A stretch of 52,629 bases of DNA from an uncultured bacterium (GCA_964483805.1 CAZADH010000011.1:1-52629), one strand, 5' to 3'; numbered from the stretch's first letter, positions 6,622 to 31,007 are shown. Notes: generated by a model from the letters alone, not told the origin. Made by a program: numbers and translations.

Positions 6622-7680
6622 ATGCTGCACCGCCCATCGCGAGTGAAACCGTCCATCGGCCGAGCGTTGCTGGCGCTTCTTGGCGCGCTCGTCTCGGTCG
6701 TCTCTGCTCTGCACGCCGAGCCCGAATGGGCCTGGCGACGGTGGGAATACATCAACACCCGCGACGTCGAGGTCACGGTCAGGGGTGACAAACCCGAGAT
6801 GCCGGCGGGTGATTGCGCCACCTTCACGGTCACCGTCCGCAACCGCACCGACAAATGCGTCAAGGTCGACTTCTTCGGCGGCCAGCACGCCGACCTGGCG
6901 GTGTATCACCATCGCGCCGAGATCTGGCGCTGGTCGCAATACAATCGATATACGTGGCGCGACGCCCGCCACAGCCTGCCCATCAACCCGGGCGAAACGC
7001 TCACCTTTCCGATGATGTGGAAGTCGGTCGACCGCATGAACCAACCCCTGCCCCAGGGCGATTACCGCATCGTCGGCGTGATCATGTCGACACCCCGCCG
7101 CATGATGTCGAACGCCACGACAATTCGGCTCACGCCGCCCCGGCGCTATCGCGACACGATCTATGTCAAGATCATGCGCCCGTTCGAACTCAAACTGCCC
7201 CGGTTCCTCGACGGCAACCAGGTCTACTGGCACCCCTACTTCGATTACAATGACAACCGCCTCGACGTCATCAACAGCAAAGAAGACGGCGACCAGACCG
7301 TCGTGCGGTTACTTCCCAAGCGGCTCGGCCATGTGACCGTCAATTTTCTCGGCTACAAACCGTTGCGCGGCAAGATGCAATCGAGAGAGCGCCGCGCGTT
7401 TCGCATCGAGGTCGTTGATTACGACCCGTATATGAAAAACAAGAAGAAGCCGCGCCCGACCGCGCGCCCCGCAACTCCACCGCCGACGACCGAACCCGCC
7501 GCCGAACCCTCGTTCACCTCCGACATCGCGGGCACTGGGACCGGCAGCCCCGCGTCTGCAGGTTCGGGCAGCGGCAGCGGCTCGCGCAGTGGCGGCACCG
7601 CCGTCATCACCTCGCTCGACGGCTCCGGCAGCGGGTCCGATTCCGGTTCCGCCAGCCCGGTCGCCACGTCCGCCGAATGA
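6622..7680 (+). CDS. Exported protein with BsuPI-like domain, second Ig-like (chagasin/I42-like) domain and S/G/T-rich tail
   Basis: Signal peptide, then GGQHADLAVY...IWRWS...INPGETLTFPMMW (BsuPI pattern). SD AGGAG at 6611. Confidence 0.7.
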   Translation: MLHRPSRVKPSIGRALLALLGALVSVVSALHAEPEWAWRRWEYINTRDVEVTVRGDKPEMPAGDCATFTVTVRNRTDKCVKVDFFGGQHADLAVYHHRAEIWRWSQYNRYTWRDARHSLPINPGETLTFPMMWKSVDRMNQPLPQGDYRIVGVIMSTPRRMMSNATTIRLTPPRRYRDTIYVKIMRPFELKLPRFLDGNQVYWHPYFDYNDNRLDVINSKEDGDQTVVRLLPKRLGHVTVNFLGYKPLRGKMQSRERRAFRIEVVDYDPYMKNKKKPRPTARPATPPPTTEPAAEPSFTSDIAGTGTGSPASAGSGSGSGSRSGGTAVITSLDGSGSGSDSGSASPVATSAE

Positions 7681-7714
7681 AGCATTGCCCATCCAACCGC
7701 TTGGAGAACAGGTC

Positions 7715-10700
7715 ATGAGCACCACGACGCGCCCGAAGAAGACCATTGAAAACCTGATGATCGAGCTCGGTCTGCTCGACGCCGCCCAACTCGAAAAGGC
7801 GAAGAACATCCAGGCCCAGACCCTCGAACGACTCGAGGATATCCTGTTGCGCATGGGTTTTCTCTCTGAAAACCAGGTGCTCGAAGTGTGGGCGCAGTTT
7901 CTCGACATCGATGTCATCGACCTGACCAACATCAAGATCGATGCCAAGCTGATCTCGATCATTCCCGAGTATCAGGCCAAGCAATACAAAGTAATTCCAC
8001 TCAAGAAAGACGGTAACAAGCTGACCATCGTCATGGCCGACCCGTTCGACATCATGGCCACCGACATGATCGGCTTCCTGACCCAGTGCAAGCTCGAACT
8101 GATGATCGCCCCGCGCGCCCAGATCGAGGACGCGATCAAGCAGTTTTATTCATGGGACGGCTTTTCAGTGTCTGGCGAAGAGACGATCACCGGCGAAGAT
8201 GGTGAAGACGCCGTGCGGCGTACTTCCGAAGAAGGCCCGGTGGTCCAGTTCCTCAACGCCGTGTTCAAGCAGGCCATCCAGAAGCGCGCCTCCGATATTC
8301 ACGTCGAGCCGCGCGAAGATATCCTGCTGATCAGGTTCCGCATCGACGGCCTCCTGCACGACATGATGACCGGCCCCAAGAGCCTGCTTCTGCCGTTGAT
8401 CTCGCGCGTCAAGATTCTCGCGCACCTCGACATCGCCGAGAAACGCCTGCCGCAAGACGGCCGCCTCAAGGTGCGCATGGAAGGCCACGACATCGACTTC
8501 CGCGTCAGCACGGTGCCCAGCCTGCTCGGCGAAAAGGCCGTGCTGCGCCTGCTGGCCCGCGATTCGGCGTACAACCTCGACGATCTCGGCTTCCTGCCCG
8601 ACGATCTCGAGCGCGTGAAAACCCAGCTCGATGAACCCTACGGCATGGCCCTCGTCACCGGGCCGACCGGCGCCGGCAAGACGACGACGCTGTTCGGCAT
8701 GCTGCGCTATTTCACAAACTCGCAGATCAACATCTTCACGATCGAAAACCCGATCGAGTACCGCATCGACGGCATCACCCAGGTGCAGACCAATGAGAAG
8801 ATCGGCCTCGATTTCGCCATGGGTCTGCGCGCCGCCCTGCGACAAGATCCCGACGTCGTGCTCGTCGGCGAGGTCCGCGACCTCGAAACGGCCGAGATCG
8901 CTTTCCGCGCCAGTTTGACCGGCCACAAGGTGCTCTCGACGCTGCACACCAACAACGCGCCGGCGACCATCAACCGCCTCATCAACATGGGCGTGCCCCC
9001 CTACCTGGTCGCGGCCGCGGTGAAACTGGTCATCGCGCAGAAACTGCTGCACCGCATCTGTCCGCACTGCCGCGCCGAATACCGGCCCTCGCAGAAGACC
9101 ATTCAGCGCTTGAAACTGGCCCCGTCACGGGTCGCCGCGACGACCTTCTACCACGGCGTCGGTTGCAAGGAGTGCAACCAGACCGGCGCCTACGGCCGGC
9201 TCGGGGTCTACGAATCGATGGCCATCAGTGACCAGTTGCGCGATATCATCATGGAAGGCGGCACCGAGCAGGTCGTCCGCCGCGTCGCCCGGCTCAACGG
9301 CATGAAGACGATGCGCGAAATCGCCATCCAACGCGCCTTTGAGGGCATGACCACCCTCGAAGAGGTGCTCGTGGTTACCAGCAGCGACGAAGACTCGACC
9401 AGTTCGGGATTGGCGGCCACCCGCCGCGCCGTTCCCCAGGTCATCCCCTCCGTCGTGGTCGCCTCGAACTTCGCCGCACCCGCCGCCCCTGGCGGGGTTC
9501 CCGTCATGGGTCCGATGGGACCGGTCGCATTGCCAGGGGCTCCCACGGCGATGGTCGCGACGGCACCCGCTCCGTCGCTCGCCTCGGTGCAGGGCATCGA
9601 TCCCGACGATCCCGTTTTCAAATCGGTGTTGGCCAAGTTGTCCGATGAGTTCCTGTTCTTCACCGACGACCAGCTCGCCGAGAAGTTTCAGATCAACCCG
9701 GTGCAGGTGCGCGAGTGCCTGACCCTGCTCGGTCTCGAGCGCAATCGCGAAGCGTTCCTGCAACGTTTCGGCCGGCCTCCCGAGAGCATGAGCGACGACG
9801 AAGCCGCCGAACTGGTGCGCACCGTCGAGGAAAAGCGCGGTCGCGTGCCGTCGCTGGTTTTCGCCCACGATGGATCGGCAAAGCTGTTTGCGCGCGTCAT
9901 GACCGAGGCCGCGCTGCGTCATCTGTCTGAACGCGTGCAAGACCTCGACCTGCTGCCGCTCGATTTCACCGACGCCTTCTGCCGCGAGAACGGTCTCGAA
10001 GACGCACTCGCCTGGGCCGGCGGCAATCGGCACCAACTCGTGGACCTGGCGATGCCCGGCCGGTACAAACCCTGGCAGTTCGACACCGCCGGCACGTGGT
10101 TCACCACCGGCGACCTCGTCGCCAAAACGCGCGAGGCGGTGCAGTGGTTCATGGAACGGCAGGGCATCAGCCCCGAGGAACTCCCCGGGCGCATGACCAC
10201 CGAGAACCTTCATGCCGCGGGGTTGCAGCATCTGCTGGTGCAATACAACAAATCACCGTTTGCCATCGCCGAAGCGGTCTTTCCCGGCCAGTATCATGCC
10301 TGGGAGTTCCCCGAAGATGAAGAGCGCTTGTGGTTCCGCGAAGACCGCCACGAGATCGCCGGCTCGGCGACCCGCTGGCTCATCGAGACCAAACTGGCGA
10401 TTCCGGTCGAAGAGGTGCCGCGACGCATCGGTCTGCGCGATTTCCACCAGCACGGTTTGAGCAAGCTGCTCGACCTGTTCAACCAGAATCTGCACAACGT
10501 ATTGACGAACGCCTACCCCAACCGCTTCCAACCCTGGGAATACGCCGAACAGTCGGATATCTGGCGGGGCGCCGAAGCATTGCAGACGGCGGCGGGCGCC
10601 ACCGACTGGCTCGTCCACGACCGCCTCGGCTGGGAACCGGAAAAGGCCGTAGGCCAGTTGACACGCCGTCATTTCGTCAACAACGGCCTGGGCACGATGC

Positions 10701-11257
10701 TGGGCGCCCTGTTCAACCACTCGCCGTTCCTGGCCATGGAAAACACCTGGGAACCCCTGAAGACCTACGAACCGTTCCAGAAGGTGTTGTTGCAGTTCTC
10801 GCAAGACTGGCGCGACATCGCCACCCGCTGGACCTCGCTCGCCGAGAAGATCGCCGTCAATCTCTACGGCAAGGTGCGCTTCAAGGTCGCGCTGCCGAAT
10901 CTCAAAATCGCCCCGATCGTGCCCGAAACCGAGCGCATCTATTACAACAATGCCAACCAGATCGAATACGTGCCGCAGATCATCGCCGGCAAGATGAGCG
11001 CCTACGACGATTTCGCCGAGATCCTGCAGTGGGTGCCGTTCTGCGACCAGGTCGTGTTCTGGGTTCTCGCCGACGACCGCGCCAGCGGCTACGTGCCGCC
11101 GTCGCACCCGAAGGTGCGCCTCATCTTCGGCGATGCGCTGGCCTCGTCACTGCGCAGCAAGAACATGGTCGATCTCGCCGAGAAACTGGCGCAACTCAAG
11201 AGCCAGCTCGACCGCCTGATGGACCGCAAAGCGCCGGCACCGGAGAAATCGGCGTAG
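7715..11257 (+). CDS. PilB/GspE-family extension ATPase with large C-terminal fusion
   Basis: MshEN-like N-terminus, ASDIHVEP, RLPQDGR, Walker A GPTGAGKTTT, DPDVVLVGEVRD, TGHKVLSTLHTN and the CPHC...CKEC zinc site. About 600 extra aa follow TTLEEV. Confidence 0.92.
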   Translation: MSTTTRPKKTIENLMIELGLLDAAQLEKAKNIQAQTLERLEDILLRMGFLSENQVLEVWAQFLDIDVIDLTNIKIDAKLISIIPEYQAKQYKVIPLKKDGNKLTIVMADPFDIMATDMIGFLTQCKLELMIAPRAQIEDAIKQFYSWDGFSVSGEETITGEDGEDAVRRTSEEGPVVQFLNAVFKQAIQKRASDIHVEPREDILLIRFRIDGLLHDMMTGPKSLLLPLISRVKILAHLDIAEKRLPQDGRLKVRMEGHDIDFRVSTVPSLLGEKAVLRLLARDSAYNLDDLGFLPDDLERVKTQLDEPYGMALVTGPTGAGKTTTLFGMLRYFTNSQINIFTIENPIEYRIDGITQVQTNEKIGLDFAMGLRAALRQDPDVVLVGEVRDLETAEIAFRASLTGHKVLSTLHTNNAPATINRLINMGVPPYLVAAAVKLVIAQKLLHRICPHCRAEYRPSQKTIQRLKLAPSRVAATTFYHGVGCKECNQTGAYGRLGVYESMAISDQLRDIIMEGGTEQVVRRVARLNGMKTMREIAIQRAFEGMTTLEEVLVVTSSDEDSTSSGLAATRRAVPQVIPSVVVASNFAAPAAPGGVPVMGPMGPVALPGAPTAMVATAPAPSLASVQGIDPDDPVFKSVLAKLSDEFLFFTDDQLAEKFQINPVQVRECLTLLGLERNREAFLQRFGRPPESMSDDEAAELVRTVEEKRGRVPSLVFAHDGSAKLFARVMTEAALRHLSERVQDLDLLPLDFTDAFCRENGLEDALAWAGGNRHQLVDLAMPGRYKPWQFDTAGTWFTTGDLVAKTREAVQWFMERQGISPEELPGRMTTENLHAAGLQHLLVQYNKSPFAIAEAVFPGQYHAWEFPEDEERLWFREDRHEIAGSATRWLIETKLAIPVEEVPRRIGLRDFHQHGLSKLLDLFNQNLHNVLTNAYPNRFQPWEYAEQSDIWRGAEALQTAAGATDWLVHDRLGWEPEKAVGQLTRRHFVNNGLGTMLGALFNHSPFLAMENTWEPLKTYEPFQKVLLQFSQDWRDIATRWTSLAEKIAVNLYGKVRFKVALPNLKIAPIVPETERIYYNNANQIEYVPQIIAGKMSAYDDFAEILQWVPFCDQVVFWVLADDRASGYVPPSHPKVRLIFGDALASSLRSKNMVDLAEKLAQLKSQLDRLMDRKAPAPEKSA

Positions 11258-17702: not shown

Positions 17703-17971
17703 CCGGCGAGCCCCGCTGTTAACGGGGTATTACGTAATAACAGCCGAGATCGGCCCCTGCGATCGCCGCCTCGTCATCCGTTTCGTGCCGGCCACTCCGT
17801 ACCCTGTCCGTGCAAACCCGCTTCATTAGCTGTTTTGGGAGGGTCTTGACAACGCGGTACCTGCATTGGTGCGCGCTATGCAAAGACAGAAGCCGATGTC
17901 AAGAGGTTGGGCCGGAAAAGTTACCACAATTTTCCTGAATTCATGCGGTTTTGCGAGGGCACACTCTCGTC

Positions 17972-18070
17972 TTATCCACATCGCCACAATTCGCTTTGGA
18001 TGCCTTTTCCCCAAGGTTATCCACATTATCCACAGCAAATTGTGTACAACGTAAAATCCGTTGTGAACAA
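17972..18070. promoter_or_regulatory. DnaA-box cluster (non-dnaA-linked)
   Basis: Perfect TTATCCACA at 17972, 18017 and 18026. One-mismatch boxes at 18005 (TTTTCCCCA), 18041 (TGTGTACAA, reverse) and 18062 (TGTGAACAA, reverse). Confidence 0.8.
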
Positions 18071-18168
18071 CGTACTGATACGGATTGAGACGATCGGATC
18101 AATGAGCAGGAGCGGGTTTTCCCGGGTCGGCGAGCGCACCGAACCCCGAACCGACTATCAAAATGTTG

Positions 18169-20139
18169 TCAGTTGCTGCGCTCGACTTTGATCGGCTCGC
18201 CGCCGAACACCGCCAAAGCATCGGCCACAGCCGGTTTTGCCAGGATCTTCGCCCGCGTTTCCGCATCGATGCGCGAAATCTGTTCCTGAACCGAGCGTTG
18301 CGGTGTTTCGCCGCCGGCCTGTCCGGCGCTGTCGGGTGTCACGATGGTCAGCCGCGTGCCCGGGCCGAAACACTGCACCAGAATCGGCGTGTAACCCTCG
18401 ACCGCCGCCGGATCACGCAATCGCTCCGCCGGAAACGACTCGCACTCGACCAGAAGTTCGCGACCCGACGCCCGCACCCACCGGGCTCCGTCAAAGAGCG
18501 CACCAAGCAGAGGTTTCTGCGCCTGCAAACGCTGAACAAAGCGCGCAAAACCCTCTGGACCGCTACCGGCAACGCTCCGCATCGGCTGCGTCCCACCGGT
18601 CGTCGGACCGTCGACCGCCTCGCCAAAATCCTCCCACAAATCTTCGTCATCCGGCGCAGAAGAAACCGCAACCGACGGTGACGGCGGCGGTGCCGCAGCA
18701 GATCGGACCGCAGTCGTGACCGGCGCAGCGACTGTCGGTGCAGCCGCAGGTGCAGAGCGCACCGTCGACGCGACCCGCACAGCCGGCGCCGCCTCCCGCA
18801 CCGTCGCACCGGGTTGTGCTGGCGTAGCCGCGCGACCGCCGGTACTCACGTTCTGGGCGGGCGCGGCCGTGGCTGATCCGACTGACGGCACGGTTCCGGC
18901 TTTGGCAACTGCGACCAGACGTGGTTCAGGCGTCGCCAGCTTTGCCTCGACCTGGGCGATCCGCCGCTCAATGCCCTCGAGGCCCAGCGACAACTCACGC
19001 CGGGCCATGCGCACCAACTCGACCTCGAGCAGCAGGCGCGGATTTGCGGCGCCCCGCAGTTGCGACAGTGTTCGTTCGAGGCGGATCGAAATCGCCATCA
19101 ACAACTCGAGCGACACCTTCTCGACCTGGGCCTTCATGTCGGCCGCTTGCTCCGGGGCTATCTCCATGACCGCTGCCAGATCGGCGCCGACCTTCAGCAT
19201 CAGGCACCGTCGCAGGTGTTCGAGCAGATCCTTGCCCACCATCTGCACTTCGTAGCCGCGAAAGAACAGGTCGTTGAGCTTCGTCAGCAGTGCCGCTGGG
19301 TTCTGCCCCAGCAGCGCGTCGAGCAGGTCTTTCATCACCCGGTGCCCGAGCCGGTGGGTCACGGCCAACACCTGATCGGCGGTGACCTGGTGCCCGGGTG
19401 CCGACACCGAGATCTGATCGAGCAGACTCAGCGCATCCCGAAAGCCACCGTCGGCAATCTCGGCCAACAGCGCCAGAACGTCGCCGGGCACCTCGGGGAA
19501 GTGCGCCGCATCGGCCTCACGCTCGCGGCCGACAACTTCACGCAACCGCTCGATGATGACCTTGCGCGCAATCGGATGAAAATCGAAATGCTGGCAACGT
19601 GACACGATCGTCGCCGGCACCTTCTGCGGATCGGTCGTGGCCAGAATGAAAACGACGCGCGGGGGCGGTTCCTCGAGCGTCTTGAGAAACGCATTGAACG
19701 CCGAAGTCGACAACATGTGCACTTCGTCGATGATGTAGACCTTGATCTTGCCCTCGGCCGGCAGAAACTTGACCTTCTCGCGCATCTGCCGGATGTCTTC
19801 GACACCGTTGTTGCTGGCGGCATCGATCTCGACGATGTCGAGAAAACTCTGGTTGTCGATGCGTTGACATACATCGCATTTACAACAGGCATCGGTCAGA
19901 CCCTCGGCCGACTTCACCGGTTCCCGGCAATTGAGCACCTTGGCCATCAACCGCGCTGCCGAGGTCTTGCCTGTGCCGCGCGGCCCCGAGAACAGGTAGG
20001 CATGCGCCACGCGCGACGCCGTCACCGAAGCGCCGAGGGTGCGCACGATCGCTTCCTGCCCCAGCAATTCGCGAAAGCTGCGGGGCCGGTATTTGCGATA
20101 GAGATTCTCTTTGTTCGGCGGGGTCGTCGGTGCGGTCAT
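18169..20139 (-). CDS. dnaX: DNA polymerase III subunit gamma/tau
   Basis: LYRKYRP, HAYLFSGPRGTGKTS, CCKCDVC, EIDAASNNGVEDIR, IDEVHMLS and SRCQ, then an Ala/Pro linker and a C-terminal domain. Confidence 0.97.
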   Translation of the reverse strand: MTAPTTPPNKENLYRKYRPRSFRELLGQEAIVRTLGASVTASRVAHAYLFSGPRGTGKTSAARLMAKVLNCREPVKSAEGLTDACCKCDVCQRIDNQSFLDIVEIDAASNNGVEDIRQMREKVKFLPAEGKIKVYIIDEVHMLSTSAFNAFLKTLEEPPPRVVFILATTDPQKVPATIVSRCQHFDFHPIARKVIIERLREVVGREREADAAHFPEVPGDVLALLAEIADGGFRDALSLLDQISVSAPGHQVTADQVLAVTHRLGHRVMKDLLDALLGQNPAALLTKLNDLFFRGYEVQMVGKDLLEHLRRCLMLKVGADLAAVMEIAPEQAADMKAQVEKVSLELLMAISIRLERTLSQLRGAANPRLLLEVELVRMARRELSLGLEGIERRIAQVEAKLATPEPRLVAVAKAGTVPSVGSATAAPAQNVSTGGRAATPAQPGATVREAAPAVRVASTVRSAPAAAPTVAAPVTTAVRSAAAPPPSPSVAVSSAPDDEDLWEDFGEAVDGPTTGGTQPMRSVAGSGPEGFARFVQRLQAQKPLLGALFDGARWVRASGRELLVECESFPAERLRDPAAVEGYTPILVQCFGPGTRLTIVTPDSAGQAGGETPQRSVQEQISRIDAETRAKILAKPAVADALAVFGGEPIKVERSN

Positions 20140-20327: not shown

Positions 20328-20593
20328 TCGTGCACCCACCCTCGAACAAGGTCAATGGCCCATATCTCGGCTGCGCTGCTCAGGCCAGGCACTCCCACAT
20401 CACCCAGAAGCTGACGTTTACCGTTGCTACCTTCCGGTCCTCACGGGGTTCACGGGCTTCTGCCGTGCGGGACCCAACCCTCAACACTTAACAACCGAGC
20501 TGGTACCACCAGCCAAGCCCTCTGGTGGGGATTCGACCCGCCTTATGGGGATTTGCGGTTTGTAGAGGACCCCAAGCCCTCCGTCTAGCACGA
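20328..20593 (-). ncRNA. ffs: Long (Alu-domain, Bacillus-type) signal recognition particle RNA
   Basis: The 5' TCGTGCTAG pairs with the 3' GTGCACGA. The domain IV hairpin reads GTGAGGACC GGAA GGTAGCAAC. It is about 266 nt and lies upstream of dnaX. Confidence 0.92.
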
Positions 20594-20609
20594 TTAACTT
20601 CGAATCCAG

Positions 20610-20697
20610 CGGAAAGGGCGGGATTCGAACCCGCGGCGGAGTTTCCCCCGCTCACGCTCTCCAGGCGTGTGCCTTAGACCAACTCAGCCACCTTTCC
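20610..20697 (-). tRNA. tRNA-Ser(GGA)
   Basis: GGAAAGGTGGCTGAGTTGG..., anticodon arm CACGC CT GGA GA GCGTG, a long variable arm and GGTTCGAATCC. No encoded CCA. Confidence 0.95.
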
Positions 20698-20714
20698 AGG
20701 GGGAACCATGAGAG

Positions 20715-20807
20715 CGGAGAGAGTGAGATTCGAACTCACGAGGGAAGCTTTCAACTCCCCTACTCGATTTCGAGTCGAGCGCTTTCGACCAACTCAGCCA
20801 TCTCTCC
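20715..20807 (-). tRNA. tRNA-Ser(CGA)
   Basis: Anticodon arm CTCGA CT CGA AA TCGAG, a long variable arm and T-loop TTCGAAT. Confidence 0.95.
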
Positions 20808-20822
20808 AAAGGGTTAAAACAG

Positions 20823-20896
20823 CGTGCCCAAGAGGATTCGAACCTCTGGCCTTCACCTCCGCAGGGTGACGCTCTATCCAGCTGAGCTATGGGCAC
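20823..20896 (-). tRNA. tRNA-Arg(GCG)
   Basis: GTGCCCATAGCTCAGCTGGATAGAGC carries the A20 Arg identity element. Anticodon arm TCACC CT GCG GA GGTGA. Confidence 0.93.
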
Positions 20897-20939
20897 ATAA
20901 AAGAACAATACATTGTAAAGCAGCGGAGCGGTATAGCGG

Positions 20940-21029
20940 CGGAGAAGGGGGGATTCGAACCCCCGGTAGAGCTTGCACCCTACGACGGTTTAGCAAACCG
21001 TTGCCTTAAGCCAACTCGGCCACCTCTCC
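20940..21029 (-). tRNA. tRNA-Ser(GCT)
   Basis: Anticodon arm ACGGT TT GCT AA ACCGT and a long variable arm. Confidence 0.95.
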
Positions 21030-21044
21030 AGGAACACAACGCAC

Positions 21045-21127
21045 CGGAGGAAGTAGGATTCGAACCCACGGACCTTTCGGTCTCCGGTTTTCAAGACCGG
21101 CGCCATCGACCGCTCGGCCATTCCTCC
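21045..21127 (-). tRNA. tRNA-Ser(TGA)
   Basis: Anticodon arm CCGGT CT TGA AA ACCGG and variable arm GACC GAAA GGTC. Confidence 0.95.
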
Positions 21128-21136
21128 AGCACGGAC

Positions 21137-26851: not shown

Positions 26852-27910
26852 TTATTCCTCGACCGCCGTGGTCAATCGGTTTCGCCGTGAACTGCGAGCC
26901 GGCGGTGTAAATACAACGCGCCACGCCCGTGGCAGCTTTTCGTACCACACCGCCGAGCTCATGTCCAGGCGGTCGGGTGTGACTCCATAATGGAGCATCA
27001 TCGCCCGGCAGATCTCGGCGCGCGCGGCTGCACAGACCTCTTCATCGGGCTCGTCGGTATCGAGCGACTTCACCAGCGACTCGATCTCGAGTTCGCCCTG
27101 TTGCCGCACCTCGCGGCGCATCTGATCGCACTCGTCGGCGGTGGCCTGCGGCACGAGTTTGCGCAACTCGTCGTTGTTGAACCAGGGGTTGTCGGCCAGT
27201 AACTGGCGCAATCGTGTGGTGCGCAACTCGGTGCGAACCTTGCGGACCTCGAACACCGTTGCTCCCGGCACCAGGCGTGCCGCTTCGGCATCAGGAATGG
27301 TCACGTTGTCTTGCACCAGTCGACGCAAAATGCGCTCGCGCTCAAACGAGTGTTGGTACCGACAGACCGCGCACAGTTGCCCCTCTTGCTTCACCACCAC
27401 AGCCCGACAACCCGGGCACAACGCAGCGCCTTCGCGACGCAGTCCCTCTTCGCGGGCCTTCATTTTGGCGCGGGTTTCGTCGATCTGAGCCGTCATCGGA
27501 TTCTGCGGCAAATCGGCGCGCCCGGTCTGCTGTCGCCAATCGGGCCATGCCGGCCGGATCGGTCGCGGCGCGTCCCACGTTGTATGACGTTCGCGCGCCA
27601 GCCGCATTTCGATGCGCTTGATGCCCGCTTCGGGCACCGACGCGCGAATCTTCTCGAGCAGGGCATCGCGGGCAAACATCAGCGTCTGCATCCATTGGTT
27701 CGTCGAACACTCGACAAACAACGTGCCGCCGCTCACCTTCGTCGGCGCCGTCTGCTTGCCGAACTGCTCACCCACGATTTCGGCCCATTGATGCATCAGT
27801 TTGCCCAGACGCATGACATCTTCAGGATCGCGCGGTTTCTTGCCGACCGCACCAAGGATCGACAGCAGGACGCCACCCACCCGCTGCTTACCCGAACCTA
27901 CGCGCGCCAC
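26852..27910 (-). CDS. DUF721/DciA family protein with C-terminal zinc finger and helical extension
   Basis: WAEIVGEQFGKQTAPTKVSGGTLFVECSTNQWMQTLMF, followed later by CPGC...CAVC. Confidence 0.8.
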   Translation of the reverse strand: MARVGSGKQRVGGVLLSILGAVGKKPRDPEDVMRLGKLMHQWAEIVGEQFGKQTAPTKVSGGTLFVECSTNQWMQTLMFARDALLEKIRASVPEAGIKRIEMRLARERHTTWDAPRPIRPAWPDWRQQTGRADLPQNPMTAQIDETRAKMKAREEGLRREGAALCPGCRAVVVKQEGQLCAVCRYQHSFERERILRRLVQDNVTIPDAEAARLVPGATVFEVRKVRTELRTTRLRQLLADNPWFNNDELRKLVPQATADECDQMRREVRQQGELEIESLVKSLDTDEPDEEVCAAARAEICRAMMLHYGVTPDRLDMSSAVWYEKLPRAWRVVFTPPARSSRRNRLTTAVEE

Positions 27911-28992
27911 GGCAACACCTCACCTTTCACCACCCGCCAACACTCGGCGCCATCTGGAACCACCGGCGGATGCTCCCCCAGGACACCGGTCTCGAAGACC
28001 TGCGCCCCACTCGGGATCATCTGCCGCACCAGGGCTGCAAAACGCTGGTCGAGTTCTGAGTAGATGTCGTCGAGTGCAATCACCGGTGGTGACCCGAGCT
28101 CTTCGCTCATCAATCGGGCTGCGGCCAGATCGAGGCTCAACGCCAGCGCCTTCTGCTGCCCCAGAGACCCAAACACCCGGACGTCGCGCTGATCGAGTTT
28201 GAGCACCAGATCGTCACGGTGGGGACCGAGGCGGGTGAACCTTGATATTATATCGCTTTGTCGCCCATTTTTCAATGCCCCGCGATACTTTTCCTGCCGC
28301 TGTCCATCAGCATTTGCCGCACCCCACCCCCCCAATTCGATGCTCAGCTCCACCCCCGGAAAAAACAGGGCAAATGTCTCCAGAACGCGCCCGGCCAGAC
28401 GCTTGACCCACTTCTCACGGCGTGCCCACAACGGCTCGGCAAAATCGGCCAGCGTGCTCTCGATGGCCTCGAACCAGGCCGCCTGCGCTCCCGATTCACG
28501 CAACAACTTGTTGCGTTGCTCAGCCGCACGATGGCACCCGATCAGCACGTGCAGATAATACGGATCGATCTGGCCGATCGCGCGATCGAGCCACCGACGC
28601 CGCACCACCGGCGCTCCGTGGACCAGTTCAATGCCGAAACTCGAGATATAGACGATCGGCAACACGCCCAGCAGATTGCTCAGTTTCGCCACCGGACGGC
28701 CGTCCAACCACATCTTCTTGTGGGTGGCCGATAATTGTAGACGCACGTCGTGATCGAGTTGGTTCTGGTCTTCAACCACCACCCGAAGCAGCGCCGTCTC
28801 CTGCCCGATGGCCACCATCTCCCGGTCATAGCGCGCCCGAAACGATCGACCATGACCGAGAAGATAGAGGCCTTCGAGGAGGTTCGTCTTGCCCTGTGCG
28901 TTGGCACCCAGAATGAGGTTCCAACCCGCAGGTTGCAGAGTCAACGGTTGCAGATTGCGAAAACCCTGAATCGACAAGCCCCGGATGCGCAC
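27898..28992 (-). CDS. recF: DNA replication/repair protein RecF
   Basis: GFRNL, GANAQGKTNLLE, GPHRDDL, GSLGQQK and LDDIYSELD. Confidence 0.96.
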   Translation of the reverse strand: MRIRGLSIQGFRNLQPLTLQPAGWNLILGANAQGKTNLLEGLYLLGHGRSFRARYDREMVAIGQETALLRVVVEDQNQLDHDVRLQLSATHKKMWLDGRPVAKLSNLLGVLPIVYISSFGIELVHGAPVVRRRWLDRAIGQIDPYYLHVLIGCHRAAEQRNKLLRESGAQAAWFEAIESTLADFAEPLWARREKWVKRLAGRVLETFALFFPGVELSIELGGWGAANADGQRQEKYRGALKNGRQSDIISRFTRLGPHRDDLVLKLDQRDVRVFGSLGQQKALALSLDLAAARLMSEELGSPPVIALDDIYSELDQRFAALVRQMIPSGAQVFETGVLGEHPPVVPDGAECWRVVKGEVLPWRA

Positions 28993-29067
28993 GCAGCAAT
29001 GCCCCCAACGAGCCAGAGACCGCCGTCAGACGAACCGACCGCGGCGGAACCGCATAAAAAACGACGA

Positions 29068-30441
29068 TCAGCCGCCGGATTGTGGTCGAATCAACCGCGT
29101 GAGTTGATCGATCTGGGCTTTGAACGACTCGTCCAGATTCAGTTTCTGCGAGATCTTCCGTTCGGCATGGATCACCGTGGTGTGATCTTTGCCGCCAAAC
29201 GCTTCGCCAATGCGTGGATACGTCTCGTTCATGAGATTCCGCACCAGATACATCGCCACCTGGCGCGGCACCGCTATCGCTTGCGATCGGCGGTCAGAGC
29301 GCATCTCGACTTCGGAGATGTCGTAGAACTCGGCGACCTTCTTCTGGATCCAGGGAATGGTCAACCGATCGTTGCCGCCTTCCCGAACGATGTCTTTCAA
29401 GACCGTTTCGACCAGATCACGGTTGACCGGGCGCCCCGTCAGTGTCGCATAGGCAACCAGTTTGGTGAACGCGCCCTCGAGCTCACGCACGTTGTTCGTC
29501 ACCAGCTCGGCCAGATACATGAGCACTTCGTTGGCGACTTCGATGCCGTGCGAATCCGCAGCGGCCTTCAAGATTGCGGTGCGCAACGACACATCAGGCG
29601 GCTGAATGTCACACACCAGCCCCTGTTCGAAACGCGAGACCAGTCGTTCTTCGAGCCGATGAATCTTCTTGGGCGGCGAATCGGAGGTCATGACGATCTG
29701 TCGCATGTTCTGATGCAACTCGTTGAAGGTGTGAAAGAACTCCTCAACCACCGCACCCTTATCGGCAAAGAATTGAACATCATCGATGAGAATGACATCT
29801 TTTTTGCGATACTTTGCACGAAACTCATTCGGATTCTTGTCACGAAGAGCGTTGATGAACTCATTTGTGAATGCTTCAGACGACAAATAGGCAATCTTCG
29901 CCTTCGGATTGTTTCGTAACACTTCTTGCCCGATGGCCTGCATCAAGTGCGTTTTGCCAAGACCAACGCCGCCGTAGATGAACACCGGGTTGTATTGCTT
30001 TCCGGGATTTCGCGCGACCGCACGACAGGCATTGTAGGCAAAAGCATTGCTCTGTCCTTCGACGAAGGTATCAAAGGTGTATTTGGCATTGAGAACACCG
30101 TCAACACGCGCCGTGTGGCTCTTCGGTTGCTTGTTGATCGTCGTCGTCGTCTCGCCTTCAGCCCCCGGCAGAACCTGCTGAACCGGTCGGGGTTGCGCAC
30201 CGCGCACCGACATGCGCGCCTGCATCGGCCTCTCGAAGCGGGCCAGTACATCACGAATCAGAGCAAACACTTTGGGTTCGAGGATCTTTCGCGCAAAGTC
30301 ATTCGCGATTTCGACCTCGAGGGTGTTGTCGACAATCGTCACCGGCCTGGCTGTGGTTCGCAACATCTCGACCAGGTAGCCGCCGACGTTTTGCTGCTTC
30401 AATTCGCTGACAACGCTGTTCCAGATTTCGTCTTTTTTCAT
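29068..30441 (-). CDS. dnaA: Chromosomal replication initiator DnaA
   Basis: YTFDTFVEG, YNPVFIYGGVGLGKTHL, IDDVQF, RLVSRFEQG, NVRELEGA and GGKDHTTVIHA. Start MKKDEIW. Confidence 0.98.
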   Translation of the reverse strand: MKKDEIWNSVVSELKQQNVGGYLVEMLRTTARPVTIVDNTLEVEIANDFARKILEPKVFALIRDVLARFERPMQARMSVRGAQPRPVQQVLPGAEGETTTTINKQPKSHTARVDGVLNAKYTFDTFVEGQSNAFAYNACRAVARNPGKQYNPVFIYGGVGLGKTHLMQAIGQEVLRNNPKAKIAYLSSEAFTNEFINALRDKNPNEFRAKYRKKDVILIDDVQFFADKGAVVEEFFHTFNELHQNMRQIVMTSDSPPKKIHRLEERLVSRFEQGLVCDIQPPDVSLRTAILKAAADSHGIEVANEVLMYLAELVTNNVRELEGAFTKLVAYATLTGRPVNRDLVETVLKDIVREGGNDRLTIPWIQKKVAEFYDISEVEMRSDRRSQAIAVPRQVAMYLVRNLMNETYPRIGEAFGGKDHTTVIHAERKISQKLNLDESFKAQIDQLTRLIRPQSGG

Positions 30442-30579
30442 GTCTGCCTGCCCTGTACCCACCCGTCGCGCCCTTGGGGTACACTTGTCGATGTACCGCA
30501 AATGTGCGTCAATATCGAATGACACGTCGTTAGCACCGCTTGGACGTCTGAAATATATCAGCCGGGAAGGCCTTCCCGC

Positions 30580-30865
30580 AACGGTTATTTGTGGATAACA
30601 CAACTAAAAAAGTGATAAGTGGTGGGTATGAAAACGGGGACAGATTCTGAAAAACCGACCTGATTTTGCCCGACGCCACCCTTCCTGGGAATTGTGTGGA
30701 CAGTTTGTACCCAAGATCCACAGAGTTATCCACACCCCGATTCGTTGTGCTGGTGCGGTTTTCCCTTGGTTTTCCCCACAATCCACACCCCATACTGTTA
30801 ATACCGCTGATGTTAAAAGTTTAAACTGTAATACTCGCTCTGCGTGGGGATGGCCGTGGATACCG
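30580..30865. promoter_or_regulatory. Probable oriC (DnaA boxes + AT-rich unwinding element) upstream of dnaA
   Basis: Perfect boxes TGTGGATAA (30590) and TTATCCACA (30726). Two-mismatch boxes at 30695, 30705, 30714, 30772, 30779 and 30855. AT-rich tract at about 30790-30835, and the + strand switches from C-rich to G-rich here. Confidence 0.8.
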
Positions 30866-31007
30866 CGTCAGGGTGCATTGACACACGTTTTCATGGTCTG
30901 CTAGACTGCGCCATCCCGCAATACCTCGGGTTTTCGCCCCATGTGTAGCCGGCATCGGAATGCGGCAGCATTGAGGCAGCGTGAAACGCGGGAACATGGA
31001 GGTCACC

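Follow-up and report, generated by a model that had tools for sequence, protein, structure and literature searches.

A conserved DnaA-box element downstream of dnaX in Riflebacteria, a probable non-origin DnaA-assembly site

Introduction

DnaA control sites that lie outside the replication origin are understood in few model bacteria, and those that are known have no sequence in common. In Escherichia coli, datA is a non-coding, non-origin site that lies between genes, past a tRNA operon and gene transcription units and close to oriC; a few co-oriented, high-affinity boxes with optimized spacing act there together with a required accessory DNA-bending site, bound by IHF between the boxes, and its origin-proximal position leads to early duplication (PMC5742627). 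[quoted passage not shown] Modulation of datA by read-through transcription has also been reported (PMC10950094). The oriC-proximal DnaA-box clusters (DBCs) of Bacillus subtilis bind DnaA and repress early initiation, some of them being transcriptional control sites, and such clusters usually lie near oriC in many Firmicutes and Actinobacteria (PMC3245932). Pseudomonas aeruginosa oriCII, an origin-like box cluster upstream of gidA, is reported to be bound by DnaA and not to be the working origin (PMC13438810).

Here we analyze a DnaA-box cluster in a 52,629-bp contig from an uncultured bacterium (GCA_964483805.1, CAZADH010000011.1), hereafter the window. Non-origin DnaA-box clusters are a known kind of site; the element described below, situated next to dnaX in Riflebacteria, appears to be undescribed, and a literature search returned nothing combining Riflebacteria with replication origins.

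Results and discussion

DnaA boxes downstream of dnaX

An initial annotation, made from the sequence of the window alone, placed a second dense DnaA-box cluster 12.6 kb from oriC, in a 466-bp gap between two 3′ ends. Both the distance (about 12.6 kb to the dnaA-linked boxes) and the convergent setting were borne out, the gap being bounded by the stop of a + strand ORF (start ~16476, stop 17702) and the stop of dnaX (Table 1). The ORF is unassigned in function, lacks any Pfam or NCBIfam match, and probably encodes a secreted product. Three perfect boxes, two of them abutting, were likewise recovered at 17972, 18017, and 18026, all on the + strand, and they do outnumber the two at the dnaA-linked site (30590 on the − strand and 30726 on the + strand). 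Perfect boxes thus number five in the whole window, where chance predicts 0.10, and a total of five or more was seen in 0 of 100 shuffles. Three additional one-mismatch boxes, also listed in that annotation, could not be reproduced: the gap contains none, and its other box-like sites carry two or more mismatches. Those with two mismatches lie at 18005 (TTTTCCCCA, +), 18041 (TTGTACACA, −), and 18062 (TTGTTCACA, −), and only the site at 18005 is a conserved box, differing at two positions from the perfect box and at one from the lineage consensus TTTTCCACA.

Three perfect boxes and one conserved near-consensus box thus fall inside 63 bp, as in non-origin DnaA-box clusters, and boxes 1–4 share one strand and have fixed spacings, as in datA. 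Weak box 5, where a sister strain has three substitutions, is probably non-functional. Assembly artefact is excluded because two independent public assemblies (2016 digester and 2020 sludge) span the locus with 0–1 differences.

Table 1 Features of the dnaX-downstream element and of oriC in the window.
Feature	Position	Strand	Remarks
Intergenic gap	17703–18168		466 bp, flanked by two 3′ ends; houses the entire element
dnaX (DNA polymerase III gamma/tau)	18169–20139	−	3′ end anchors the element
DnaA box 1, triple module	18026–18034	+	Perfect TTATCCACA; TGTGGATAA when read in the dnaX direction
DnaA box 2	18017–18025	+	Perfect TTATCCACA; abuts box 1 head-to-tail, spacer 0
DnaA box 3	18005–18013	+	TTTTCCCCA; 3 bp past box 2; the conserved TGGGGAWAA of the module
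DnaA box 4	17972–17980	+	Perfect TTATCCACA; same orientation; 33 bp start-to-start from box 3
Weak box 5	17920–17928	+	GTTACCACA; derived from the duplicated unit
Degenerate palindrome	18156–18171		TATCA-N6-TGTCA (cf. TATCA-N6-TGATA); overlaps the dnaX stop codon
Two direct repeats	18040–18074		TTGTGTACAACGTA and TTGTGAACAACGTA; the first contains the conserved GTAC (18044–18047)
Degenerate motif copy	17953–17964	−	GTGTGCCCTCGC, copy of the GTGCCCTCTTGACA motif; marks the internal duplication
Conserved motif	17897–17905	−	CTCTTGACA (CCCTCTTGACA in relatives); 45 bp past the triple box in 28 of 31 loci
Inverted partner	17843–17851	+	GTCTTGACA (TGTCAAGAC in the dnaX direction); 45 bp from the conserved motif
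oriC	30442–30940		Between dnaA (29068–30441, −) and divergent + strand genes; GC-skew minimum and two perfect boxes
oriC unwinding module	30770–30804	+	Tandem boxes TTTTCCCCA-CAATCCACA, CCCC spacer, four trios ATA CTG TTA ATA

Host lineage and gene neighborhood

The closest relatives of the window by DnaX and DnaA (50–61% identity) are metagenome-assembled genomes of Candidatus Riflebacteria / Ozemobacteraceae, and the window is a contig of a divergent genome of this group. Runs that contain its sequence come from anaerobic digesters and sludge. Neither a scan of genome contigs with the single DnaX protein of the window nor an exact-protein look-up of that protein gave a match.

Genes on the − strand are ordered dnaA (true start MKKDEIW), recF, a DUF721 protein, gyrB, gyrA, five tRNAs, SRP RNA, and dnaX. 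The window DnaA scores 504 bits against TIGR00362, the equivalog model for DnaA, and the DUF721 protein corresponds to what is called DciA (PF05258) in the loci of relatives. The RNA genes (20328–21128) comprise a large-type SRP RNA and tRNAs Ser-GGA, Ser-CGA, Arg-GCG, Ser-GCT, and Ser-TGA. Since they precede dnaX on the same strand, the element closes a tRNA–SRP RNA–dnaX unit, as datA follows glyVXY.

Several further observations concern this neighborhood. The dnaA gene cluster is devoid of dnaN in the window (26852–30441) and in loci L001, L004, L086, L130, and L131. Its order is dnaA-recF-DUF721 protein-gyrB-gyrA in the window and dnaA-dciA-small ORF-gyrB-gyrA-divIC in relatives, where recF is missing from that place. 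In a 1222-aa ORF (7589–11257), similarity to a type II/IV secretion ATPase (T2SSE with an MshEN domain) is confined to residues ~105–594, the long rest being unassigned; the ORF could be a fusion or could have been called too long. At 18300–18420, inside the low-complexity C-terminal part of dnaX, several runs yield Logan contigs that stack up at higher depth with loose ends, and this segment is probably repeated or common to community members.

Conservation of the element in Riflebacteria

Among seven relatives found through DnaX homologues, the same array lies directly past dnaX in six and 2.9 kb downstream in the seventh. Synteny is kept at these loci, the gap past dnaX measures 400–690 bp, and the array has an identical orientation relative to dnaX. 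A pattern built from the array, TGGAWAWNGTGGAWAACYWTGGGGAWAA, was then scanned against GTDB with one genome per species and matched 41 loci, 29 of them in Riflebacteria. A dnaX match occurs just upstream on the same strand in 28 of these 29; at the remaining locus (L089) dnaX lies beyond the fetched piece, and assignment relied on the flanking motifs. At least 29 species genomes of Riflebacteria hence have the ~260-bp element directly past dnaX, irrespective of GC content, which ranges from 29% to 57% in the gaps of relatives.

From the dnaX stop onward come the palindrome TATCA-N6-TGATA, a hairpin, GTAC, the triple box, box 4, CCCTCTTGACA, and an inverted TGTCAAGA(G/C). The exact palindrome occurs once per locus in relatives, 146–152 bp (~147 bp) from the triple box vs 139 bp for its degenerate counterpart in the window, and the hairpin past dnaX is terminator-like. 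GTAC precedes box 1 by 15 bp in the window and by 15–16 bp in 26 of 30 related loci. Box starts within the triple module are at 0, 9, and 21 bp, with spacings of 9 and 12 bp kept in 30 related loci, and box 4 follows box 3 by 30–31 bp in relatives vs 33 bp in the window. The inverted partner is kept in most relatives, 45–75 bp beyond CCCTCTTGACA. Three peculiarities set the window copy apart: its boxes are of the E. coli type TTATCCACA vs TTTTCCACA in relatives, its palindrome is degenerate, and a ~54-bp internal duplication of the unit formed by box 4 and the motif, specific to this genome, is the source of the weak fifth box and leaves 99 bp between triple box and motif vs 45 bp in relatives.

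As a negative control, 67 dnaX loci of other bacteria were drawn from 80 non-Riflebacteria loci, which a scan of metagenome contigs with a DnaX alignment had matched through universal DnaX motifs. Within 500 bp past dnaX, all 67 have fewer than three boxes vs 3–4 at Riflebacteria loci, and the element is therefore specific to the Riflebacteria lineage. Within the species, comparison with one 96%-identical strain gave three differences in the 203 bp of the core (17966–18168) and 22 in the 263 bp of the remaining gap (Fisher p = 7e-4), so that the box core is about five-fold better kept in that strain. Seven differences from the sister strain lie between 17924 and 18321; the strong boxes and the GTAC have none, and the weak fifth box has three. 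We infer from these alignments that the element is under purifying selection.

Some loci returned by the scan merit separate mention. The element of L111 is broken by a stretch of N, with the segment from box 4 to CTCTTGACA present on either side; this looks like a gap left by scaffolding over a repeat, or like a duplication such as the window shows. Two loci labeled Erysipelotrichia (L100) and Candidatus Methylomirabilis (L114) have a Riflebacteria-type dnaX followed by the element and are probably mis-binned; L114 also shows gyrB-gyrA synteny at 65–72% protein identity. Past the element in low-GC relatives (L004 12010–12090; L086 12045–12170; L087 2900–3025) there are several TGTGTACA repeats and a 34-bp palindrome, GTTTACATAA-N5-TGTACA-N5-TTATGTAAAC, both absent from the window. 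TGTCAAGA and TGTACA bear no convincing resemblance to Spo0A, LexA, or ParB motifs.

The triple-box string, mostly as TGGATAATGTGGATAACTTTGGGGATAA, also occurs in 12 genomes of other phyla (L090, L092, L098, L102–L105, L108, L110, L117, L118, and L121), labeled mostly Clostridia with one each of Enterococcus, Sutterella, and Prevotella. These loci are box-rich and have no dnaA inside the 8-kb piece; one copy sits within a mutL ORF, and neighbors, judged by ORF N-termini, include lepA and hpf-secA. They may be DBCs built from the same module. Four of them (L103, L104, L117, and L118, labeled Prevotella, Clostridium, Clostridium, and Agathobaculum) have a near-identical box-rich stretch of ~300 bp around the triple box, which suggests a mobile element, very close relatives, or mis-binning.

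The chromosome origin lies upstream of dnaA

Origins are reportedly served by a basal unwinding system of tandem DnaA boxes and DnaA-trios, as set out by Richardson, Pelliciari, and Murray. We scanned for such systems, following the definition in PMC8287927, as a box with at most two mismatches, a spacer of at most 16 bp, and at least three consecutive DnaA-trios (3′-NAN-5′) on the correct strand. A box-plus-trio module was found in the dnaA-upstream gap of the window, L004, L086, and L132, and a complete module of boxes, trios, and AT-rich stretch stands upstream of dnaA in every genome examined except L001, where the called gap is just 223 bp. Read in the dnaA direction, oriC of the window presents an AT-rich stretch, four trios, GGGG, and the tandem boxes TGTGGATTG-TGGGGAAAA; its trios on the opposite strand are 3′-TAT GAC AAT TAT-5′, and the module continues into the most AT-rich 40 bp of that gap (72% AT). 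Textbook trios were also seen in L004 (3′-GAT TAT TAT TAT AAT GAT-5′) and L132 (CTA CTA CTA ATT CTA, box strand). L132 (8544–11407, GCA_015232575.1) has dnaA inverted relative to dciA-gyrB-gyrA, with oriC between the divergent dciA and dnaA.

Cumulative GC skew in the window declines from 1 to ~31 kb and then climbs. Skew is negative over − strand genes (1–5.9 and 18–30.4 kb) and equally over + strand genes (5.6–17.7 kb), so it tracks replication direction and not transcription. The only switch in the window is at 30.5–31 kb, in the dnaA-upstream gap, which is flanked by divergent genes here and in relatives. The reading in the initial annotation that the + strand looks C-rich on both sides of the 18-kb cluster, and that this is probably not the skew switch, was thereby confirmed; a skew minimum at the cluster, which would have made it the true oriC, was not observed. 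Upstream of dnaA, the skew also switches in L131 and L132 and is flat in L130. Because it is flat in some relatives (L130), the assignment of the origin rests on three genomes together with the trio architecture. oriC is the dnaA-upstream gap at 30442–30940.

The cluster past dnaX has none of these properties. Scanning 17703–18168 detected no module with four or more trios, no trios occur at 18040–18074, their expected place in an origin, and the dnaX-downstream gaps of the window, L001, and L086 contain no box-plus-trio module; the element gap of L004 passes the trio rule loosely, solely through a poly-T run beside the boxes. No AT-rich unwinding element adjoins the 18-kb boxes: AT content over 40 bp of this gap peaks in the box array itself (68%), and the flank expected to hold an unwinding element carries the GTAC-containing repeats. 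Nor does the skew switch at 18 kb, being negative on either side.

It is accordingly very improbable that the cluster serves as an origin, whether as the true one, as a second one, or as the remote half of a bipartite origin looping to the dnaA-linked boxes, the last of these having been suggested in the initial annotation. In favor of an origin, its perfect boxes outnumber those at the dnaA site, its module and the oriC boxes have homologous layouts, the T-rich run of L004 loosely satisfies the trio rule, and local skew in L001 and L085 is close to zero from dnaA to dnaX and positive past the element. Against these points, the stretch from 18 to 30 kb has negative skew although it would be leading-strand from such an origin, and the tRNA, SRP RNA, gyrAB, and dnaX genes would run head-on to the fork. 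Bipartite origins of the Helicobacter pylori or B. subtilis type have two box clusters on either side of dnaA, always linked and close enough to loop together. Here the clusters are 12.6 kb apart, and the stretch between them has six genes for proteins, five for tRNAs, and the one for SRP RNA. A split origin has little room when the dnaA-upstream gap is already complete with boxes, trios, and AT-rich stretch. In GCA_015232575.1, moreover, one contig carries dnaX and the element (L088, complete with the palindrome, 2.9 kb past dnaX) and another carries dnaA and oriC (L132), so the element tracks dnaX rather than oriC. The number of perfect boxes by itself would have chosen the wrong site as the origin.

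The two clusters of the window nevertheless align over 62 bp (z = 6.5), with a common layout of tandem boxes, CCWWGGG(G)AAAA, ~12 bp, CGAAT, ~6 bp, and TGTGGATAA. The element resembles an origin's box half, with no unwinding half beside it. This alignment, together with the recent internal duplication in the window copy, could be taken to mean that the cluster is a functionless relic of a partial duplication of the origin’s box region. We find that hardly credible given phylum-wide conservation with fixed spacings across GC contents from 29% to 57%, and given that within-species substitution is lower in the core than elsewhere in the gap.

Comparison with known DnaA control sites

We consider it probable, from the comparative evidence, that the cluster forms the core of a conserved ~260-bp element acting as a non-origin DnaA-assembly site of the datA or Bacillus DBC kind. 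The absence of a skew switch and of trios or an unwinding element, the co-oriented and phased boxes, the phylum-wide conservation, and the purifying selection all support a non-origin regulatory reading. A titration or regulatory locus of the datA, DARS, or DBC kind had been proposed for the site initially, and that proposal fits on all testable points, with DnaA binding and an effect on initiation as its predictions.

Like datA, the element follows an RNA-containing transcription unit, here tRNA–SRP RNA–dnaX, and has four co-oriented boxes with accessory motifs at fixed distances. A looser likeness is that TATCA-N6-TGATA resembles the IHF consensus WATCAANNNNTTR with one or two mismatches; no IHF-like site lies between the boxes of the element, and the unique palindrome sits 146–152 bp from them and is degenerate in the window. 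Unlike datA, which belongs to a different phylum and has no sequence homology to it, the element has a spacer-free head-to-tail pair with a third box 3 bp on, hence another box number and spacing; it lies ~11–13 kb from oriC, whereas datA is ~470 kb away; and it is physically tied to dnaX. The B. subtilis DBCs are also box clusters outside oriC and mostly near it, but the Riflebacteria element keeps its sequence, geometry, and dnaX neighbor across a whole phylum. The tandem head-to-tail pair recalls origins with a basal unwinding system, cf. boxes 6/7 of B. subtilis, and aligns with the boxes of the window’s own oriC; the defining trio array and AT-rich stretch of such origins are missing from it.

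E. coli DARS1 and DARS2, which reactivate ADP-DnaA through core boxes I–III that favor ADP release, an outcome opposite to that of datA, are likewise non-origin box clusters in which the spacing of sites for accessory factors is conserved. A DARS-like role, in which the array would assemble ADP-DnaA, promote nucleotide exchange, and stimulate initiation, agrees with a non-origin cluster of few boxes whose conserved flanking motifs might serve accessory factors, cf. IHF and Fis at DARS2 (PMC5742627), and sequence data alone do not separate it from a datA-like one. Nothing in the sequence of the element points specifically to nucleotide exchange, however, and the closest architectural parallels, namely co-orientation, a position downstream of a tRNA/gene unit, and proximity to oriC, are reported for datA. 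We therefore regard a DARS-like role as improbable.

Possible transcriptional control at the element

The main rival to the assembly-site reading remains transcriptional. A DnaA-controlled promoter at CCCTCTTGACA could drive an unannotated RNA or the downstream gene, or the element could control termination or read-through at the end of the tRNA–SRP RNA–dnaX unit, in which case any effect on free DnaA would be merely secondary. The motif contains a perfect TTGACA (−35 hexamer), fixed at 45 bp from the triple box and with box 4 ~14 bp upstream, and its very strong conservation could signal such a promoter and not a sink. A co-directional gene of 423–445 aa comes next in low-GC relatives, and a terminator-like hairpin precedes the element in relatives. 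Precedents exist in that DnaA is a transcription factor at several B. subtilis DBCs (PMC3245932) and reportedly at P. aeruginosa oriCII (PMC13438810).

Other evidence makes this explanation unlikely. By eye, no conserved −10 hexamer lies 16–19 bp past TTGACA in any lineage on either strand. A sigma-70 and terminator scan of the window gap found nothing at CTCTTGACA and only two weak promoter-like matches, which overlap boxes or repeats. The 423–445 aa gene family is absent from the window; in Ozemobacteraceae the gene is displaced and the next gene convergent, and the element nonetheless persists. Rfam has no RNA family in the gap, at the gathering threshold or at E ≤ 1, and word shares of just 5–7% in a search of RNA runs amount to noise. 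oriCII reportedly precedes a promoter and regulates gidAB-parAB (PMC13438810), whereas no promoter or regulated gene was found for the element.

A model for DnaA assembly

If the element is a DnaA-assembly site, its four co-oriented boxes, about two and three helical turns apart, would seat a head-to-tail DnaA oligomer. Because trios and an AT-rich unwinding stretch are absent beside the boxes, such an oligomer would have nothing to open, and the complex would hold DnaA without opening DNA. Partner proteins that shape the complex probably dock at the flanking fixed-distance motifs (TATCA-N6-TGATA, GTAC, and CCCTCTTGACA/TGTCAAGAG). In the four genomes for which both sites were placed (window, L001, L004, and L086), ~11–13 kb separate the element from oriC. 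At this distance it would be copied seconds after initiation, doubling the high-affinity sites, and re-initiation might then be held back by sequestering DnaA or by altering its nucleotide state, the same logic as at datA and the oriC-proximal DBCs of B. subtilis. From this early doubling, restraint of re-initiation is the most likely role, an argument weakened by one genome in which the element is not provably near oriC. As a decoy or control site, the element thus most likely contributes to the timing of chromosome replication.

A more ambitious version, which we put forward tentatively, treats the whole ~260-bp element as a nucleoprotein machine of fixed geometry, arisen in an uncultured phylum independently of datA and DARS and coupled to dnaX read-through. 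It would consist of the palindrome, ~147 bp of DNA, GTAC, the triple box and box 4, together with the CCCTCTTGACA/TGTCAAGAG pair. DnaA activity would be altered by an oligomer of DnaA and by partners at the flanking motifs, and attachment to the dnaX 3′ end would couple read-through transcription of the tRNA–SRP RNA–dnaX unit to DnaA availability, much as tRNA read-through has recently been reported to control datA. If this is true, the TGGATAATGTGGATAACTTTGGGGATAA module at sites away from dnaA in Clostridia would be a widespread building block for trapping DnaA.

Implications for Riflebacteria

The analysis fixes the chromosome origin of Riflebacteria at the dnaA-upstream gap, with textbook DnaA-trios. 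Since perfect E. coli-type boxes are present in the window copy, this copy is a ready substrate for in vitro work. The element is unusual in that one sequence, one geometry, and one neighbor are kept across an entire uncultured phylum, and it provides an alignable case for asking which features of a non-origin DnaA control site matter, whether box number, phasing, or partner motifs.
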